This document shows positions 183 through 7,977 of a stretch of 17,365 nt of DNA, piece by piece. The notes under the pieces are model-generated. The model saw only the letters and a program-made list of their open reading frames with translations, searched no databases and was not told the DNA's origin. The number at the start of each line of letters is the position of its first letter. Position 1 is the stretch's first letter. Source of the stretch: a virus. Both the position numbers and the translations under genes were made by a program. The stretch lies in the IMG/VR virus record IMGVR_UViG_3300028833_002934; one strand, written 5' to 3'.

Positions 183-211
183 ATTATATAATTTTTTTTT
201 TAAATTTTCAA
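183..211 (-). promoter_or_regulatory. Recurrent promoter module (minus strand: TTGAAA-17-TATAAT), transcribes leftward out of window
   Basis: Plus-strand tttcaa at 206-211 and attata at 183-188, with a 17 nt spacer. The module matches the copies at 5106, 7903, 12337 and 14878. Confidence 0.5.
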
Positions 212-1821
212 ATAGCCGTGTAATCTGCGATAACATCAGGGATACTAGAATTTAAATCAAATATTTCAGCGAATCTATCCTTATCAATCACATCATCTAA
301 TGTAATATAATATTTGACATCCCAAAGACGTTTGTCTATACGAGGTTTATTATTAAATACTTTAAAATATTCTGGGTTAGTATCAGGATCATATACATAA
401 ATGACATTATCATAATAAATAGGATTATTGTTATCATCATACCCAATTAACCAATGAAGGCAATCACAATGTTGTGCAAGATGAGAATAACCAGTTAGAT
501 CATCAACGACACATTCAGTTTCAAAACATTCTTCACAAATAGGATCATCTAAATCATCAATATAATAAAAATAATCTTTAGGAAGATAATCTCCGCAGCA
601 AGCGCAATAAGTTCCATTATCGCATTTTATGCACATTACGGCATTATCTCTTTCTCTATCTTCTATTGGTTGCCCACACCACATACATGTGGCTAAACCT
701 CCATAAGAAAATTCTGCCATATAATGCCAATTTGTTGCTTCTTTATCTTGCCATTCAGTTAAATGATATTTCCCTATTTTATTACGATTAATTCTTGCAC
801 GATGCGTATCAAGAGTCCCAAAATCATTATACATATATTGCTCAGGGGAAATATTAATAAGTAAATCATCATCTTCATTCCAAGGAATAGTATTAGCAAC
901 ATTTATTTCATCATTATCATAAGTCCATCCTAAATTATTTTCTGCCAATTCTTTAATCCACATTAAGACCGTATTTGTTAAATGTAGATCTTGGAAACAA
1001 TATCCTTTAATCTCTGACATCATTTCTGGATAAACAACGAATAATTCACGCCAATGTTTACTATTCCATTCCATACCTTGAATAGGCTCCATAGTATGTT
1101 CTGGATTATGCAAATATGCTACTAAAATATATGGAGAATTCATACACTCTATAGTGCCACATCTATAATCTCCATGATCCATCCAACTCATACAACTAGA
1201 CCAATTATTATTATTATCACTCATTGTCATAAAATCTAATGGATGGATTGATAAACAAAGTTCCCCATCAACCATTTTACTATTTAACATTTGAGAATGC
1301 CAAAGTCTAAAATTTTCAAAAATTTGTTCATCACATTTATATTTTTGTGCAATTTTAGATAAAATACGTAATGGGCGCATACCTTTTGATACTTTAAATT
1401 TTTCATTATCTGGTGGCAAATAATAGGTTGTCGTTGCATAAGGGTATTTATTATCTGCTAATACTGATAAATCAAAAGTATCCCTAATCATAGTATAAAC
1501 ACCATAATCTTGAGTTGACATAGGCCCCAAGACTTCTTTTTTTATCCACTATGAAAAATTCTCATAAGCTGGAGTATATTTCTCTATTGACATTTTTTTT
1601 ACTATTGCATCTGTATTATACATATAAGTATAAGGACGCCGCACAATAAAATTATTTCCTAAAAGTTTGTATAAAGTTTGTTTTTGGCGATCCCATTCGT
1701 GTAATATAATATCAAATCCACTAAAATCATGCTCTGGTTCATAATTATCATTAATGGGACCAAATGTTCTAATATAATTATAAATTAAATCTTTATCTTG
1801 TTCTGAAAGTTTTTCTATCAT
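208..1821 (-). CDS. Large Cys-rich hypothetical protein (~537 aa) if TAG at 1549-1551 is read through. Under the standard code it splits into two ORFs, 1549..1821 (90 aa) and 208..1530.
   Basis: Track ORFs 1549..1821 and 208..1530 share one frame (codon boundaries at 1821 and 1530 are both 0 mod 3). They are separated only by TAG at 1549-1551 plus 6 sense codons. RBS AAAGGAC lies upstream of ATG at 1821. The track's start at 1530 is TTG. The stop is TGA at 208-210. The C-terminal half carries many CxxC pairs. Function is not recognised. Confidence 0.5.
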
Positions 1822-1842: not shown

Positions 1843-1876
1843 AATTCAAAGGATTAAATATTAATCCTTTGAATTA
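1843..1876 (-). terminator. Intrinsic terminator-like hairpin between two minus-strand genes
   Basis: 14 bp perfect inverted repeat attcaaaggattaa/ttaatcctttgaat around a 3 nt loop. The plus-strand aaaaa at 1840-1844 is a U-run for the minus-strand transcript. The hairpin overlaps the TAA stop (1861-1863) of the upstream gene. Confidence 0.5.
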
Positions 1877-2793
1877 TCCTTTTCATTTACTTTATTATTC
1901 TTATCTTTCTTATTATTTAACATAAAATAAAGATATGGACTTCCACCCATTAACATCAACATAGTTGGATCAATATCTATATTATTTTTCTGTGTTAAAG
2001 CAAACAAAGCAAGTAAATTATTATTATTATTATTATCCTTAATAAACATTAAAGGAAGTAAACTACCAAATGGATTATTTGAATCAGCTTCTGGTAAATA
2101 ATCTGTAATAGATATAATAACAGTGACATAATTAAATCCAAATGGAGACATTGAAGGAAGGATTGTTAATTCTGTACCTTCATATGGGTTAATAACAACA
2201 AAACGGTTATCTTTAATTTCTTCAACAAACATCAAATTTCCATTATGAAGAACAATATCTCCAACCTCAACATCGCTTATTGCTTTTGGAAATTTATAGA
2301 AAATTTTAGAATTTTCAATTTCAATATTTAAAATATTAACATCAACAATAGCATTTCTCTAGCGATCAAAAGATACCCATTTATTCTCTTTATTTTTAAG
2401 AGCAATTCCAAAAGTAGAAAGACGTAAATTATTTGATGTATATGGGCCAAAACTAAAATCAGTATTACTCATTTTATCTTTTTGTTTTTCCTCCGCTAAT
2501 TTTTTCTCTATTATATCTTCTATAGACTACCATCCATTATTAGGCCATACATAAGATGACGATGTTAATGGTTGATAAGTAAAACTATAATCATTCGCAG
2601 TATAATCTCCTATTGAGATATTATTACTATATGTTTCTCCAGACTAAATAGTATATGTATCAGTAGATGATAGCCCAGTAACCTTGATACGATCATCTGC
2701 AATAGAAAACTATATACTACTATTATCATTACCACTTGTAATAGAATTTGAAGAACAAACTGTATTTACAGTGGATGTTAAATTATCAGACAT
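1861..2793 (-). CDS. Hypothetical protein, 310 aa, containing four in-frame TAG codons (recoded)
   Basis: ATG at 2793 lies 9 nt after GGAG. A single frame of 310 codons runs to TAA at 1861-1863. It is interrupted only by TAG at 2710-2712, 2644-2646, 2527-2529 and 2359-2361, with no in-frame TAA or TGA. The track saw only the last 124 aa (1861..2235). The N-terminus is Ser/Thr/Asn-rich. Confidence 0.6.
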
Positions 2794-2852: not shown

Positions 2853-3275
2853 TCAATAATCTTCATTTTCATCTTGAGCTTCTTGTTCAATAAAGAACAT
2901 TTCTCCATCAAAATGAACTTTTACTGTTTCATCTTCTATATAATTTTGGATATCTTCTGCTATTTGTTCTAATTCTTCTTCCGTATAAAGTTCCTCTATG
3001 TATTCGTTATCATAGGTTAAAAATAAAATAGCATCTTCAATAGAAGAACCAAATTCTCTATATTTATCATAAATATGAAAAAGATTTTCCTCAAAATTAC
3101 GAGCAAATGCTAAATCGAATAAATCTTCAATAGTATTTACTGTAAATTGTTTATCATTAACGACTATTGGGTCATCATTTTCATAAAGTTCTTGCAAAAG
3201 ATAAAAGTCATCTATATTATTATAAGATGTTAAACTTGCCATAGAACTTAGAAAAAAATCAATAGTTCTTGTCAA
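2853..3275 (-). CDS. Acidic hypothetical protein (140 aa from TTG). It may begin at ATG 3368 with a read-through TAG at 3306-3308.
   Basis: The track ORF starts at TTG. The same frame stays open upstream through a TAG to ATG at 3366-3368, 24 nt after the TGA stop of the upstream gene. Very acidic C-terminus. Stop is TGA at 2853-2855. Confidence 0.55.
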   Translation of the reverse strand: MTRTIDFFLSSMASLTSYNNIDDFYLLQELYENDDPIVVNDKQFTVNTIEDLFDLAFARNFEENLFHIYDKYREFGSSIEDAILFLTYDNEYIEELYTEEELEQIAEDIQNYIEDETVKVHFDGEMFFIEQEAQDENEDY

Positions 3276-3391
3276 TTCATGGTCATCAATTCCAGCAAGA
3301 TATCGCTACTTAGACGAAGTATCTAAATTTTTAAAATGAAAATATAAATCTTTAAATTCATCTAACATACTATTATAATAGACAAATTCTT

Positions 3392-4614: not shown

Positions 4615-5073
4615 TCACATCCACCCTTCAAAAATCATATTAAGTTCTTTTACTGCTTCTGGATTATTATTCATAAAATTAACAACAAACATATTTGCTT
4701 CAAATTCATCAAGAATATGCCAATAATCAAAAGCATTATATACACTTTCTTTTTGAAACTTAAAAATAATTTGTTCAAGATCATCATAATTGCTATCTGT
4801 AAGACAATGCCCTAATTCGTGTAAAAAAGTTAAAACAGAATTAGTAGCATTGATATCGCAACCATATTCATGAAGAAATTGACGGAAATCATTATGAATA
4901 GGTTTATCTTGTTTTCCTATATAGATAACTTGTTCTTTCCAAGCATAACCAGATTCTTTATTATATAAAAAAGTAAGACCATTGAAATGAAGATATTTTT
5001 GTACCCAATTATTTAAATCATCATTAAGAGTTCTAGGAACACTTATGCCAAAGTGAGAAAAATAATATTTCAT
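4615..5073 (-). CDS. HExxH zinc-metallopeptidase-like hypothetical protein, 152 aa
   Basis: ATG at 5073 with GAGG RBS. Contains FLHELGHCL (HExxH) and sits directly downstream of a consensus promoter module. Confidence 0.65.
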   Translation of the reverse strand: MKYYFSHFGISVPRTLNDDLNNWVQKYLHFNGLTFLYNKESGYAWKEQVIYIGKQDKPIHNDFRQFLHEYGCDINATNSVLTFLHELGHCLTDSNYDDLEQIIFKFQKESVYNAFDYWHILDEFEANMFVVNFMNNNPEAVKELNMIFEGWM

Positions 5074-5105
5074 AAAAAATACCTCATTTCTTATTTTCTA
5101 TAAAT

Positions 5106-5134
5106 ATTATATAATATTTTTTTAAAATTTTCAA
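5106..5134 (-). promoter_or_regulatory. Promoter module TTGAAA-17-TATAAT driving gene 4615..5073
   Basis: Plus-strand tttcaa at 5129-5134 and attata at 5106-5111, with a 17 nt spacer. It belongs to a ~75 bp segment duplicated at 7861-7935. Confidence 0.55.
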
Positions 5135-5142
5135 TTAAAAAA

Positions 5143-5172
5143 TTAAAGAGGCAATACAAATTGCCCCTTTAA
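5143..5172 (-). terminator. Intrinsic terminator hairpin after gene 5174..5509
   Basis: Stem ttaaagaggcaat/attgcccctttaa (13 bp, one wobble) around loop acaa. A/T runs flank it on both sides. Confidence 0.5.
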
Positions 5173-5173
5173 T

Positions 5174-5509
5174 TTACCACCATTCACAAAATAGATACAT
5201 TTGTGGAGTTTCTGACGCTGCAATTTCTGGGAACTCTTTCTTAAATAAATTAATAAAATCTTCCCAATCTTTTAGATCTATTTCTCTAGACATATTCATA
5301 TTAATTGGTTCATAATAATCAGTAGAACTGAGAGTAAGACCGCAAAAAACATCGCTATCAGCAGCATAACTATTAATATCACAAAAATAATCTTCAAGTG
5401 TCATATAATTCGCATCATTTATATTTTCAATTTTGTTCATATAATTCTGATGTTCATCACTTGAAATAATATATCCATATCCAATTCTTGCAGAAGCATC
5501 AACGCTCAT
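5174..5509 (-). CDS. Hypothetical acidic protein, 111 aa; paralogue of 7551..7868
   Basis: GGAGATTAATT precedes ATG at 5509. The N-terminus MSVD....GYGY..S.E is shared with the protein at 7868. Stop is TAA. Confidence 0.7.
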   Translation of the reverse strand: MSVDASARIGYGYIISSDEHQNYMNKIENINDANYMTLEDYFCDINSYAADSDVFCGLTLSSTDYYEPINMNMSREIDLKDWEDFINLFKKEFPEIAASETPQMYLFCEWW

Positions 5510-5545: not shown

Positions 5546-5785
5546 TTATCTTACTTCAGGAACGCTAGTAATTCCAAACTGTTCAATATAAGAATTTAGA
5601 CTATCTTTTCTCCATTGATTATCAATAGGATTATTAGGATAATTCCAAATTAAATATTTTGCTTCTTCCCAAATAGATAAAAGAATTTCTTCTAACAATC
5701 CTTTATCATAACTAGCATAATATAAAAGAGTGTCAGTCGTTTCTGCTCGTTTTTCTAGTTTATATAAAATATAAATATTATTCAA
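5546..5785 (-). CDS. Small hypothetical protein, 79 aa; weak member of the tandem LLQEIL family
   Basis: The ORF has the motif DKGLLEEILLS. Its start overlaps the end of the upstream gene (5778..6029). Confidence 0.55.
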   Translation of the reverse strand: MNNIYILYKLEKRAETTDTLLYYASYDKGLLEEILLSIWEEAKYLIWNYPNNPIDNQWRKDSLNSYIEQFGITSVPEVR

Positions 5786-6029
5786 TATAATAATCCTCCA
5801 AATTTATAATTTCATAAGCAGAAGTAGCCATAGGAGCCGCAAATTTTTTCCACCATTCTTGTGGAGTATAATATTTAGTTAAAGATGGCAAATTAAATGG
5901 TAAGGAAAAACAATAAATTAACCATTGCTCATATTCTGTATCAAAATAACTATCCATAATTATTTCTTGAAGTAATTCTCTATCATTAGAAGTATAAGTA
6001 ATTTTTTCATTTATAAAAAGAGCATACAT
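5778..6029 (-). CDS. Small hypothetical protein, 83 aa; tandem paralogue family
   Basis: ATG at 6029 is preceded by AAGGGGA. It shares RELLQEIIMDSYF and the C-terminal LEDYYIE with its neighbours. Confidence 0.65.
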   Translation of the reverse strand: MYALFINEKITYTSNDRELLQEIIMDSYFDTEYEQWLIYCFSLPFNLPSLTKYYTPQEWWKKFAAPMATSAYEIINLEDYYIE

Positions 6030-6044
6030 AATTTTTCCCCTTAA

Positions 6045-6296
6045 TTATTCAATATAGCAATCTAAATCTATAATATATTGTTCGCATAAAAAAGGATGTT
6101 CTTTTTCTACTTTCCAAAAAGAAATAGCATCTTCTGGACAAAGCCTATATTTTGTGCCCACGGCATGGCATTGAAGATTATAAGTGTAGTAAGCAAAATC
6201 AAAATAATCATCTGCTAAAATTTCTTGAAGTAAATCTTTATCAGAAGAAATATATTTTAGATTTTCTCCTATGTAATAACCATATAATTTATTCAA
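6045..6296 (-). CDS. Small hypothetical protein, ~83 aa, probable TTG start; tandem paralogue family
   Basis: GGAGGA lies 8 nt before TTG at 6294-6296. The protein then begins (M)NKLYGYYIG...DKDLLQEILADDYF...DLDCYIE, parallel to gene 6289..6576. The long hydrophobic N-terminus in the track ORF overlaps the upstream gene in another frame and is likely an artefact. Confidence 0.5.
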   Translation of the reverse strand: MNKLYGYYIGENLKYISSDKDLLQEILADDYFDFAYYTYNLQCHAVGTKYRLCPEDAISFWKVEKEHPFLCEQYIIDLDCYIE

Positions 6297-6576
6297 CTCG
6301 ATATTCCTCCAAATCTTTAATAAATCGAGAAGATAAATGAGAATTAACAAAATTAGAATCTTTATCTTTGGCCTGATGCCAAAAAACACGAGGAGAAGAT
6401 ATTTCATCAATTTCATGAAGCCAATATACAGAAGAAAATGATGTAAGATAACTATACCAATGGTATGCTTCTTCATAATAATCATCCATCAAAATCTCTT
6501 GGAGTAATTCTTTGCTAGAAGACACTTTCATAAGCACACTACCTTTAAAATATCCATAAAGTTTATTTGTCTCCAT
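6289..6576 (-). CDS. Small hypothetical protein, 95 aa; tandem paralogue family
   Basis: Strong RBS GGAGGG precedes ATG at 6576. The protein reads METNKLYGYF...SKELLQEILMDDYY...LEEYRVE. The TAA stop overlaps the next gene's start. Confidence 0.65.
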   Translation of the reverse strand: METNKLYGYFKGSVLMKVSSSKELLQEILMDDYYEEAYHWYSYLTSFSSVYWLHEIDEISSPRVFWHQAKDKDSNFVNSHLSSRFIKDLEEYRVE

Positions 6577-6883
6577 GCTTTCCCTCCATATCGCATCTAA
6601 AAAAGAAATCATAAATATCATCATAAGATTCAAAAATTTCATTAAGTTTGGTATTCCAAACAGAACCGCATTTCATAACGCCATTTACGCAATCGAGAAC
6701 TTCTTCCGCAACGCTTTCGTAATCTTCATAAATTTCTTTACATTTCTTTTCAGTCATTTTACGGAGAAGAATCCATGCTTCGTTGGCACAAAGATGGTCC
6801 ATATTTGTATCAGGAGCATTATATTCTAAATCCATAATATCAGCGATTAATTCACACATATCACAAAAAATAGTTTGATCCAT
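6563..6883 (-). CDS. Hypothetical acidic protein, 106 aa
   Basis: ORF in the minus-strand operon. It overlaps the downstream gene by 14 nt. Confidence 0.6.
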   Translation of the reverse strand: MDQTIFCDMCELIADIMDLEYNAPDTNMDHLCANEAWILLRKMTEKKCKEIYEDYESVAEEVLDCVNGVMKCGSVWNTKLNEIFESYDDIYDFFFRCDMEGKHGDK

Positions 6884-7165
6884 TTATACTTCCTCCATCC
6901 ACTTATGATTGCGCTTTATAATAGTAGAATGTATATCAGAATGAAAATGTACTTTTAGTTTAAGATGTCGCATTTTCCCAGAATCATGTAAAGTTTCAAG
7001 TTCGTTCAAAATTTCGATATTATTTAAATCTAAAAAGAAAGTAGTAGTTCCCGCTTTATATGCGGCGCGCACATATTTAAGAGTATCGTTTACAGTTTTA
7101 AAATGCTCGTCATAGATATTACCGGCCGGTGTGGGCCGCAGGTCATCGACATAAATAAATTTCAT
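6884..7165 (-). CDS. Hypothetical protein, 93 aa
   Basis: ORF that abuts its neighbours (6563..6883 and 7162..7548) with no gap. Confidence 0.6.
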   Translation of the reverse strand: MKFIYVDDLRPTPAGNIYDEHFKTVNDTLKYVRAAYKAGTTTFFLDLNNIEILNELETLHDSGKMRHLKLKVHFHSDIHSTIIKRNHKWMEEV

Positions 7166-7548
7166 ACTATACCAATCTCCTTAAAATTTATTTTAGCATA
7201 TCTACCTTCTAAATTTGCTTGGTCAAATGGATTGGGATCTTCCGCCCATACATTAAAATTTTCTACAATACACTGATTGACCCAATACCAAATTTTAGAT
7301 TCTACAAAAAGCCCAGTTTCAAACCAATATTGTGCTGTTTTATTTGTTTTATTATCTTTACATTCTAATAAAACATATAATTGAGCGCCACTATTGTCAT
7401 AATAAGTATAAAATTTAGATTGCTTTTGGCAAATAGTAAAACGACCATTCCAAACCCAATCATTTTTAATATTTTTATTTAATTCACGAATTATTTTATT
7501 AATATATCGTTGATACTTCTTACGTTTTAAACTGGTTAATTTCATCAT
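7162..7548 (-). CDS. Hypothetical basic, Trp-rich protein, 128 aa
   Basis: ORF with a 4 nt overlap onto the next gene. Confidence 0.6.
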   Translation of the reverse strand: MMKLTSLKRKKYQRYINKIIRELNKNIKNDWVWNGRFTICQKQSKFYTYYDNSGAQLYVLLECKDNKTNKTAQYWFETGLFVESKIWYWVNQCIVENFNVWAEDPNPFDQANLEGRYAKINFKEIGIV

Positions 7549-7550
7549 AA

Positions 7551-7868
7551 TTACGTCACCGCAAATCCTATATAATGATGCGCGATTTCATTGGATTTAA
7601 TTCCAAAGATATTCTTATATTCGGCAAGCATTTTGTGTAATTCATCATGATCCATTTCATCTACTACTGGAATTTGATATACTTCACATCCATCAACGAT
7701 CGCAAGTGTAATGCCAAAAAATCCCTTATAAGATTCAGAATAACCATCAAGGATTGTAAAATAATCACTGTCGAATAATTCATCGCGTTTTTCTGGGGCA
7801 AGTGTAGATATTTTTTCATCAGAAACTTCATAACCATATCCATAAAAAACTCTATAATCAACGCTCAT
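7551..7868 (-). CDS. Hypothetical acidic protein, ~105 aa; paralogue of 5174..5509
   Basis: The probable start is the second ATG, at 7868 (MSVDYRVFYGYGY...), preceded by TGAGGAA. The first 12 nt, ATGAGCGTTGAT, are identical to the paralogue's start. Confidence 0.7.
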   Translation of the reverse strand: MSVDYRVFYGYGYEVSDEKISTLAPEKRDELFDSDYFTILDGYSESYKGFFGITLAIVDGCEVYQIPVVDEMDHDELHKMLAEYKNIFGIKSNEIAHHYIGFAVT

Positions 7869-7902
7869 AAAAAAATTCCTCATTTCTTATTTTTCTATAA
7901 AT

Positions 7903-7931
7903 ATTATATAATATTTTTTTAAAATTTTCAA
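7903..7931 (-). promoter_or_regulatory. Promoter module TTGAAA-17-TATAAT driving gene 7551..7868
   Basis: Plus-strand tttcaa at 7926-7931 and attata at 7903-7908, with a 17 nt spacer. It is a duplicate of the 5106-5134 module. Confidence 0.55.
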
Positions 7932-7977
7932 ATAAAAAAATACTTTACCTTAAAAATAAGGTAAAGTATTTTTTTTA
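7932..7977. terminator. Bidirectional intrinsic terminator directly after the MVP-like gene
   Basis: Perfect 13 bp stem atactttacctta/taaggtaaagtat around loop aaaa. It is flanked by an A8 run on the left and a T8 run on the right. Confidence 0.6.

Follow-up and report, generated by a model that had tools for sequence, protein, structure and literature searches.

A copy-number-variable tandem array of small acidic paralogues with putative translation-coupling cassettes from a gut phage that is apparently very large

Introduction

Does a row of very small, AT-rich open reading frames (ORFs), some of which start inside the end of their neighbour, constitute a genuine family of duplicated phage genes, and what would such a set be for? 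This question is raised by a 17,365-nucleotide (nt) stretch of the IMG/VR virus record IMGVR_UViG_3300028833_002934 (the whole stretch is referred to below as the window), in which four small genes, named c1 to c4, follow one another on the minus strand. An earlier annotation, made from the letters and their translated ORFs without database searches (the sequence-only reading), had described them as a tandem array of rapidly diverging small acidic proteins with overlapping or coupled starts, typical of host-takeover or anti-defence arsenals and belonging to a family that it did not recognise. The coordinates it gave for all four genes were correct:

6289..6576, minus strand: c1, 95 amino acids (aa); first copy in the window; ATG at 6576
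6045..6296, minus strand: c2, 83 aa; TTG at 6296 within TTGAATAA
5778..6029, minus strand: c3, 83 aa; ATG at 6029
5546..5785, minus strand: c4, 79 aa, divergent; TTG at 5785 within TTGAATAA

Results

The four genes encode paralogues with a constrained scaffold and a variable insert

The four genes encode paralogues of one small acidic protein family. Smith-Waterman scores were compared with those of 2000 composition-preserving shuffles per pair. The c1-c2 alignment scored 132 against 28.7±5.3 for shuffled sequences (z 19), with z 16 for c2-c3 and z 11 for c1-c3, and in each of these three pairs none of the 2000 shuffles reached the observed score, bearing out the proposed tandem paralogy. The relationship of c4 was weaker, with z 6.4 against c2 (0/2000 shuffles), z 4.2 against c3 (9/2000) and z 3.1 against c1 (27/2000). 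A non-circular profile-profile test, using separate profiles of 40 c1-c3-type and 18 c4-type sequences, aligned the two types by hhalign with an E value of 1.1e-3 across the N-terminal 41 columns. AlphaFold2 (AF2) models of c1 (predicted local distance difference test, pLDDT, 83.5; predicted template modelling score, pTM, 0.72) and of c4 (pLDDT 85.2, pTM 0.66) agreed in their predicted topology, in which two strands precede a long helix and one or two short helices lead to the last strand. Intermediates on further contigs link the c1-c3 and c4 types, with Y7, S19, L25 and E27 invariant in one alignment; they include a copy designated c4b, the sequences P0069-P0074 and a solitary copy at L001 18837..19082. 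Within the array, c4 is always last or next-to-last. Taken together, the element order shared by the models, the intermediate sequences and the position in the array place c4 in the family.

The solitary copy in L001 is a distant member of 81 aa (hidden Markov model (HMM) E 5e-6). It lies ~8 kb downstream of the array in the 199-kb contig of which L001 is a part, outside the region covered by the window.

All four proteins are acidic, as had been claimed (isoelectric points 4.2-5.1, net charge -4.5 to -8.5), and they are rich in aromatic residues. The sequence motifs described for them need two corrections: c3 lacks NKLYGY, beginning instead with MYALF, and c4 lacks the C-terminal LEDYYIE. The conserved scaffold begins with an N-terminal beta-hairpin and ends with a C-terminal strand, and its long helix bears S..K(E/D)LLQEI. 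A middle segment separates this helix from the last strand; it is 7-15% identical between paralogues, compared with 31-59% in the flanks. The pattern is one of a constrained scaffold with a variable insert.

A structural resemblance to ClpS might suggest adaptors that redirect a host AAA+ protease. We regard this as very unlikely: about half of the protein superposes (45-50 residues, 7-12% identity), the resemblance was not reproduced with c4, so that no superposition of the whole domain holds for all paralogues, and the order strand-strand-helix-helix-strand is very common in small alpha/beta proteins. Moreover, a Pfam scan with a library expected to hold the ClpS model returned no ClpS-family hit at E<=1, and no ClpS chain appeared in a PDB sequence search at E<=10.

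A new and narrowly distributed family

A profile search of 5.8 billion clusters recovered 60 members, and an exhaustive HMMER scan of 1.84 billion representatives gave 19 hits, two of which (P0073 and P0075) were rejected as spurious because they are ankyrin-repeat proteins matching on NKELLKEVL. A second profile search that included the distant members brought the total to ~100 clusters, with E values down to 1e-32. All of these clusters are metagenomic and unannotated, and they cleanly define a new family. The long contigs that carry it measure 199-241 kb and are TAG-recoded; one of them, an IMG/VR viral genome of 239,565 bp, is a near-identical copy of the 199-kb contig that contains L001.

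The sequence-only reading was also right that the family is unrecognised. Scans of c1-c4 against Pfam-A, PHROGs v4, NCBIfam and PADLOC gave a best E value of 0.014, with all matches far below the cut-offs; a PDB sequence search with the family profile returned nothing under E 0.39, and Foldseek against BFVD gave a best E value of 0.26. Neither megablast with the whole window nor tblastn with c2 found a match among 50,697 deposited phage records. A scan of 185,579 species genomes with c1-c3 motifs revealed no relative, and thus the family was not found in cellular genomes. Small phage accessory paralogues are a familiar kind of family, and this one is new and narrow in its distribution.

Start codons and ribosome-binding sites

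Every gene between 208 and 10,425 lies on the minus strand, and the window is AT-rich (26-37% G+C). A ribosome-binding site (RBS) precedes each start in the array. For c1, GGAGG at 6587..6583 is separated by a 6-nt spacer from the ATG, which overlaps the stop of an upstream 106-aa gene by 14 nt. The starts of c2 and c4 each overlap the preceding stop, of c1 and c3 respectively, by 8 nt, and each is served by a GGAGG at a 9-nt spacer. Start, stop and Shine-Dalgarno (SD) positions therefore bear out the overlapping starts at c1/c2 and c3/c4, two of the three internal junctions. The broader claim that each copy is overlapped by the next failed at c2/c3, where a 15-nt gap separates c3 from the c2 stop and c3 has its own AGGGG at 6041..6037.

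The predicted 146-aa ORF at 6045..6485 had been called a misreading of c2, and correctly so: its first 63 codons are c1 read in another frame. In L013, the DNA of which is 95% identical, this frame is open for just 24 codons upstream and contains no ATG there, indicating that the ORF is not conserved. Automatic gene calls in relatives give c2 as 63 aa in L001 and leave both c2 and c4 uncalled in L002. The starts defined here correct such calls, in which c2 appears as 146 aa, as 63 aa or not at all and c4 is often missed.

Comparison with relatives supports the putative TTG start of c2. Where c2 follows a different upstream gene, an ATG is found 1-3 codons from the TTG position (MLNNKLYGYY in L007, MT(D/N)KLYGYY in L022 and L023). 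In L001, L012, L015 and L018, CGTGTAGAATAA replaces CGAGTTGAATAA at the c1/c2 junction. With either version c1 ends in Arg-Val-Glu-stop, the two substitutions being synonymous in that gene, and in the c2 frame CGTGTAGAATAA provides GTG followed by TAG in place of TTG (4 distinct loci). The TTG of c4 is kept in 12 distinct loci, and in L006, where c4 follows a different copy, an ATG stands in its place (MSNNIYILY).

A stop/start cassette encoded in the C-terminal motif

At the two overlapping junctions the signals for the next gene form a compact unit:

6289..6310, minus strand: c1-to-c2 cassette; GGAGG at 6310..6306, 9-nt spacer, TTG at 6296..6294, TAA at 6291..6289
5778..5799, minus strand: c3-to-c4 cassette; GGAGG at 5799..5795, 9-nt spacer, TTG at 5785..5783, TAA at 5780..5778

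The first occupies the c1 codons L-E-E-Y-R-V-E-stop, with CGAGTTGAATAA or CGTGTAGAATAA in relatives, and the second the c3 codons L-E-D-Y-Y-I-E-stop, so that the GGAGG serving c2 and c4 is embedded in the Leu-Glu codons of the upstream gene. The TTG lies 5 nt before the TAA in both pairs, a geometry that is kept in at least 12 distinct loci, and the same cassette stands ahead of c4 regardless of which copy is upstream. The DNA that specifies the C-terminal LE(D/E)Y.(V/I)E-stop, TTGGAGGA...TTGAATAA, contains the RBS, the next start and the current stop.

The presence of the SD sequence tracks the downstream start type in 10/10 loci. Where c2 is directly followed by the overlapping TTG-c4 it ends in LE(D/A) and keeps TTGGAGG in 5/5 distinct loci (GAGG in L014), and where the next gene is c3, with its own SD, c2 ends in LDC, LGN, LKN or LKD and GGAGG is lost, again in 5/5 distinct loci. 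The motif is absent from c4, which is followed by a separately initiated gene. The C-terminal protein motif is thus partly a nucleotide signal for the next gene, and guesses at function from motifs in arrays of this kind need corresponding caution.

The geometry suggests that SD-aided termination-reinitiation is likely at c1/c2 and c3/c4. Ribosomes ending c1 or c3 would reinitiate on c2 or c4, and the paralogues would therefore be made together in a fixed proportion. Coupling through the opening of a hairpin was considered and dropped, because the RNA at the four junctions was no more structured than shuffled sequences (z 0.05 to 1.5). The conserved sequence in which the downstream frame overlaps the upstream stop could alternatively serve programmed frameshifting, fusing c1-c2 and c3-c4 into longer proteins. 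This is extremely unlikely, since CGAGTTGAATAA and TATATTGAATAA contain no slippery heptamer and no stimulatory RNA structure is predicted, a well-spaced GGAGG and a start codon are conserved instead, and the same copies also occur behind different upstream genes, where they start with ATG.

Turnover of copies, with faster evolution at the array head

Copy number in the array varies from 2 to 5 across related loci, some of which have an extra copy, c0:

L001: c0-c1-c2-c3-c4
Window, L010 and L013: c1-c2-c3-c4
L014 and L015: c1-c2-c4
L022: c2-c3-c4
L023: c2-c4
L007: c0-c2-c4-c4b
L006: c0-c4-c4b

The copy c3 is absent from L014, L015, L007 and L023, and c4 occurs in all related loci that extend to the array end. 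Segments aligned by blastn overlap at the deletion joints (the window without c0, L022 without c1 and L014 without c3). In the window, the 5' end of c1 (METNK...) matches the 5' end of c0, and its body shares 99% identity with the c1 of a locus that has kept c0, indicating that c0 has been deleted here. The first copy of L022 is a c1 5' end joined to a c2 body, and in L014 c2 is joined to c4 via the 3' cassette. Such joints point to two conserved DNA blocks, one of ~100 nt at the 5' end and the other the 3' junction cassette, at which unequal homologous recombination adds and removes copies. Similarity of adjacent genes, together with copy-number differences whose joints lie in homologous blocks, is the signature of unequal crossing-over between tandem paralogues.

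A comparison of contig L010 with 5546..6672 of the window found the c1 protein to be identical (dN 0, dS 0.04), c3 to be much more diverged (dN 0.22, dS 0.61) and the C-terminus of c2 to differ; this indicates mosaic exchange within the array between co-occurring phages.

To describe selection, ratios of nonsynonymous to synonymous substitution rates (dN/dS) were calculated with the overlap zones trimmed beforehand:

c0: whole gene 0.46
c1: whole gene 0.45; scaffold 0.28, middle segment 0.76
c2: whole gene 0.22; scaffold 0.12, middle segment 0.46
c3: whole gene 0.29; scaffold 0.23, middle segment 0.43
c4: whole gene 0.12; scaffold 0.10, middle segment 0.14; the most conserved copy

All copies are thus under purifying selection, as real coding genes would be. 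The description of the proteins as rapidly diverging suits c0 and c1 (~0.45, and 0.76 in the c1 middle segment) but not c4, with its low ratio and its presence in every locus that reaches the array end.

These results also bear on the possibility that the similarity is noise from low-complexity AT-rich coding, or that the small ORFs are not genes at all. The array region has just 26-30% G+C and gene callers disagree on c2 and c4, but this explanation is refuted by the shuffle z-scores of 11-19, the ~100 homologous clusters with E values down to 1e-32, dN/dS well below 1, confident AF2 models and an RBS ahead of each start, and its probability is practically nil.

A predicted nine-gene transcription unit

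The array is predicted to lie in a single nine-gene transcription unit running from a promoter at 7931..7903 to a terminator at 5175..5140. The order of genes is a 105-110-aa gene, a 128-aa gene, a cRec-like gene, a 106-aa Cys-rich gene, c1-c4 and a 111-aa gene:

7903..7931, minus strand: predicted promoter, TTGAAA-17-TATAAT; directly after a hairpin at 7934..7975
7551..7868 (or to 7883), minus strand: first gene of the unit, 105 aa if started at ATG 7868 (MSVDY...)
7162..7548, minus strand: 128-aa gene, conserved beside the array even in the distant locus L025
6884..7165, minus strand: cRec-like (receiver-fold) gene, 93 aa; Pfam PF20274, E 0.019
6563..6883, minus strand: Cys-rich gene, 106 aa, directly upstream of the array; its stop overlaps the c1 start; 74-97% identical in relatives
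5174..5509, minus strand: last gene of the unit, 111 aa; paralogue of the 7551..7868 gene
5140..5175, minus strand: predicted intrinsic terminator, a 16-bp stem followed by a T run, after the 111-aa gene; conserved in L001 and L022

L001 and L012 have the promoter at the corresponding position, and L007, L014, L022 and L023 have a TTGATT variant of it there. The promoter belongs to a 41-nt cassette, TTGAAAATTTTAAAAAAATATTATATAATATTTATAGAAAA, at 7891..7931, an identical copy of which is found on the minus strand at 5094..5134, directly after the terminator. In the repeated regulatory cassette, TTGAAAATTTTAAAAAAATATTATATAATATTTATAGAAAA stands between a hairpin terminator and a conserved leader that ends in AAATGAGGnATTTTTTATG; the cassette and leader (…TAAGAAATGAGGnATTTTTTATG) are conserved in relatives, and the conserved leader suggests that the first gene starts at ATG 7868 rather than at 7883. 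Eight promoters share an extended consensus and an A-rich spacer, the others lying at 15233, 15118, 14906, 12365, 2856 and 211. Sites matching at least 11/12 positions of the sigma-70 consensus number 12 in the window, compared with 1.5±1.2 in random sequence, and 10/12 are on the coding strand. This excess suggests that the unit may be transcribed by the host polymerase, which is consistent with early expression without proving it. Together with the 239,565-bp IMG/VR relative, it makes the proposed phage setting with host-type, early-like promoters plausible.

The two genes that open and close the unit are paralogous (25% identity, BLASTP E 1e-6). Their start resembles that of the array proteins (YGY...S.DE), and they were considered as members of the array family and rejected (hhalign E 0.21). 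The Cys-rich gene had no family match in Pfam, PHROGs or NCBIfam. Orthologues of the cRec-like gene in relatives have 112 aa. The PF20274 hit, weak in the window, is clearer in L014 (3900..4238), where the precomputed annotation has it unmarked, and is marked weak in L007-L009. In the distant locus L025 this gene and the 128-aa gene stay associated with the family. For the conflict systems of jumbo phages, it has been suggested that the cRec domain is a counter-defence or RNA-repair enzyme acting on cyclic phosphate ends or cyclic ADP-ribose (PMC7824862).

In L014, genes for a DUF2828 protein, an AAA_33 kinase-like protein and a PDDEXK_5 protein lie near the cRec-like gene, which hints at an RNA-repair or conflict gene set; DUF2828 is presumably TROVE-like.

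Upstream of the unit lies a large gene that varies in its association with the array:

7978..10425, minus strand: vault-like gene, 815 aa (780 aa from the second ATG)

Its product has Pfam hits to the shoulder domain of the major vault protein (PF11978, E 1.7e-20) and to a vault repeat (PF17795, E 1.3e-8). Among deposited phages, homologues were found only in three huge, uncultured ones with genomes of 462-735 kb, at 39-41% identity and 93-95% query coverage. The gene adjoins the array in L001 and L012 and is absent from this position in L008, L014 and L022.

Downstream of the unit, the first gene after the repeated promoter cassette (4615..5073, minus strand) encodes a 152-aa protein with a HELGH (HExxH) motif and a weak match to the metallopeptidase family Reprolysin_5 (E 0.038). 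Elsewhere in the window, the ORF-poor stretches 13300..14377 and 14800..15750 contain three tandem strong promoters (15233, 15118 and 14906) and hairpin terminators (15436..15403, 14017..13976 and 15733..15758), and the GC skew is reversed across 12500..14500. These stretches could encode small RNAs or be only regulatory DNA; Rfam and tRNA scans of the window gave no hit.

Probable sense reading of TAG in the window's phage lineage

Eight of the deposited gene calls of L002 (99.98% identical to L001) are interrupted by in-frame stops, and 24/24 of these stops are TAG. When TAG is read as sense in the window, 208..1530 and 1549..1821 fuse into a 537-aa gene, 1861..2235 lengthens to 310 aa (1861..2793) and the vault-like gene extends to its 815 aa; the ORFs read through TAG are 208..1821, 1861..2793, 2853..3368, 7978..10425 (minus strand) and 10913..11521 (plus strand). 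Within the array family, codon 2 is TAG in c0 of L006 and L007, CAG in c1 of L015 and GAG in the window, a variation that fits TAG encoding Gln. Long conserved ORFs interrupted only by TAG, and TAG aligned with Gln codons, are the features of a code 15-like reassignment, and TAG to Gln (code 15) has been proven in other gut phages (PMC9523058). The switch from TTG to GTG plus TAG at the c2 start provides independent support for a sense TAG in the window's phage clade. Taken together, these observations indicate that TAG is a sense codon in this lineage. A scan for tRNA genes, among them a suppressor tRNA(CUA), found none in the 17-kb window. All nine genes of the unit are free of TAG.

The plus-strand ORF at 10913..11521 contains 5 TAGs, and its counterpart in relatives is a formate/nitrite-transporter-like gene (PF01226).

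The carriers of the family would form a clade of TAG-recoded, putative jumbo phages, and the source of the window looks like a very large gut phage.

Discussion

What might the array be for? As it stands, the case is typical of phage accessory gene families. Among the readings of its function, a birth-and-death array of host-directed or counter-defence accessory proteins is the likeliest single option, and we hold it tentatively. It is favoured by the small size and acidity of the proteins, the flux in copy number, the faster evolution at the array head, the promoter type and the cRec-like neighbour. The proteins would be cytoplasmic binding modules, each paralogue having a partner of its own determined by the variable middle segment, and they would act as early accessory factors that bind host targets or components of host defence. 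In such a set c4 would be the conserved core member, and c0 and c1, at the array head, the fast-evolving ones.

The main competing explanation is that the paralogues are subunits of one hetero-oligomeric phage complex, which we judge unlikely. Coupled translation is a classic arrangement for subunits required in set ratios, and a conserved cassette that fixes stoichiometry, together with purifying selection on all copies, would suit such a complex. Pairing could occur through exposed beta-strands, as the three-stranded sheet predicted in the c1 and c4 models has free edges, and the role could be structural or regulatory within the phage rather than host-directed. However, close relatives have anything from 2 to 5 copies and can lack any of c0, c1, c2 and c3, which is hard to reconcile with a fixed complex, and the middle segments are unrelated between paralogues.

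Several observations weigh against host-directed or counter-defence accessory proteins. Whole-gene dN/dS exceeds 1 only in two low-divergence c0 pairs (dS ~0.03), so that an arms race is not demonstrated, and the strong conservation of c4 would equally suit a housekeeping role in the phage. In HMM, PDB, Foldseek and phage searches the proteins resembled no known family, whether of anti-defence, host-takeover or other function. Reinitiation is deduced from geometry, at junctions whose RNA has no special structure, and the notion of early expression comes only from sigma-70-like promoters. The phage identity itself derives from the IMG/VR label, the apparent TAG recoding and the huge-phage homologues of a neighbouring gene, and no phage hallmark genes were seen in the 17-kb window.

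A more specific form of the host-directed reading is that the conserved core with its hypervariable insert is a diversifying binding scaffold, which the phage clade would deploy as a co-translated set of inhibitors, each directed against a different component of host defence or of RNA-damage pathways. This is a distinctly doubtful proposition. Such a set would act alongside the cRec-like enzyme and the adjacent vault-protein-like gene, and recombination at the stop/start cassette would let the phage reshuffle it quickly. If the proteins were counter-defence factors, they would offer a natural set of paralogues with swapped specificity segments.

Comparison with known systems

Anti-CRISPR and anti-defence operons likewise encode small acidic proteins, several per operon and patchy among relatives, and the array resembles them in adjoining a candidate counter-defence gene (the cRec-like gene). 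It differs in that no aca-type regulator was seen, and its proteins showed no sequence or fold similarity to known anti-CRISPR or anti-defence inhibitors.

In large lytic phages, the SPO1 host-takeover module and T4-type hyperplastic regions contain small, often acidic ORFs with good RBSs behind strong host-type promoters. Their gene content varies between close relatives, and repeated regulatory cassettes at gene boundaries are possible recombination sites. The 41-nt promoter cassette at both ends of the array unit recalls this arrangement as described in the literature. In contrast, the array genes are paralogues of one family, the array proteins had no sequence or fold relation to the module proteins in the searches made, and the recombination blocks lie inside the coding sequence and the stop/start cassette.

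Finally, the junctions resemble the coupled overlaps of bacteria and phages (ATGA or TAATG), in which stop and start overlap by a few bases, the SD sequence lies in the upstream coding sequence and the downstream start is weak. Here, however, the unit is TTGAATAA with a TTG start, or a GTG followed by a sense TAG, and the cassette is part of a repeated paralogue, in which it both encodes the protein motif LE[DE]Y.[VI]E and serves as a recombination site.

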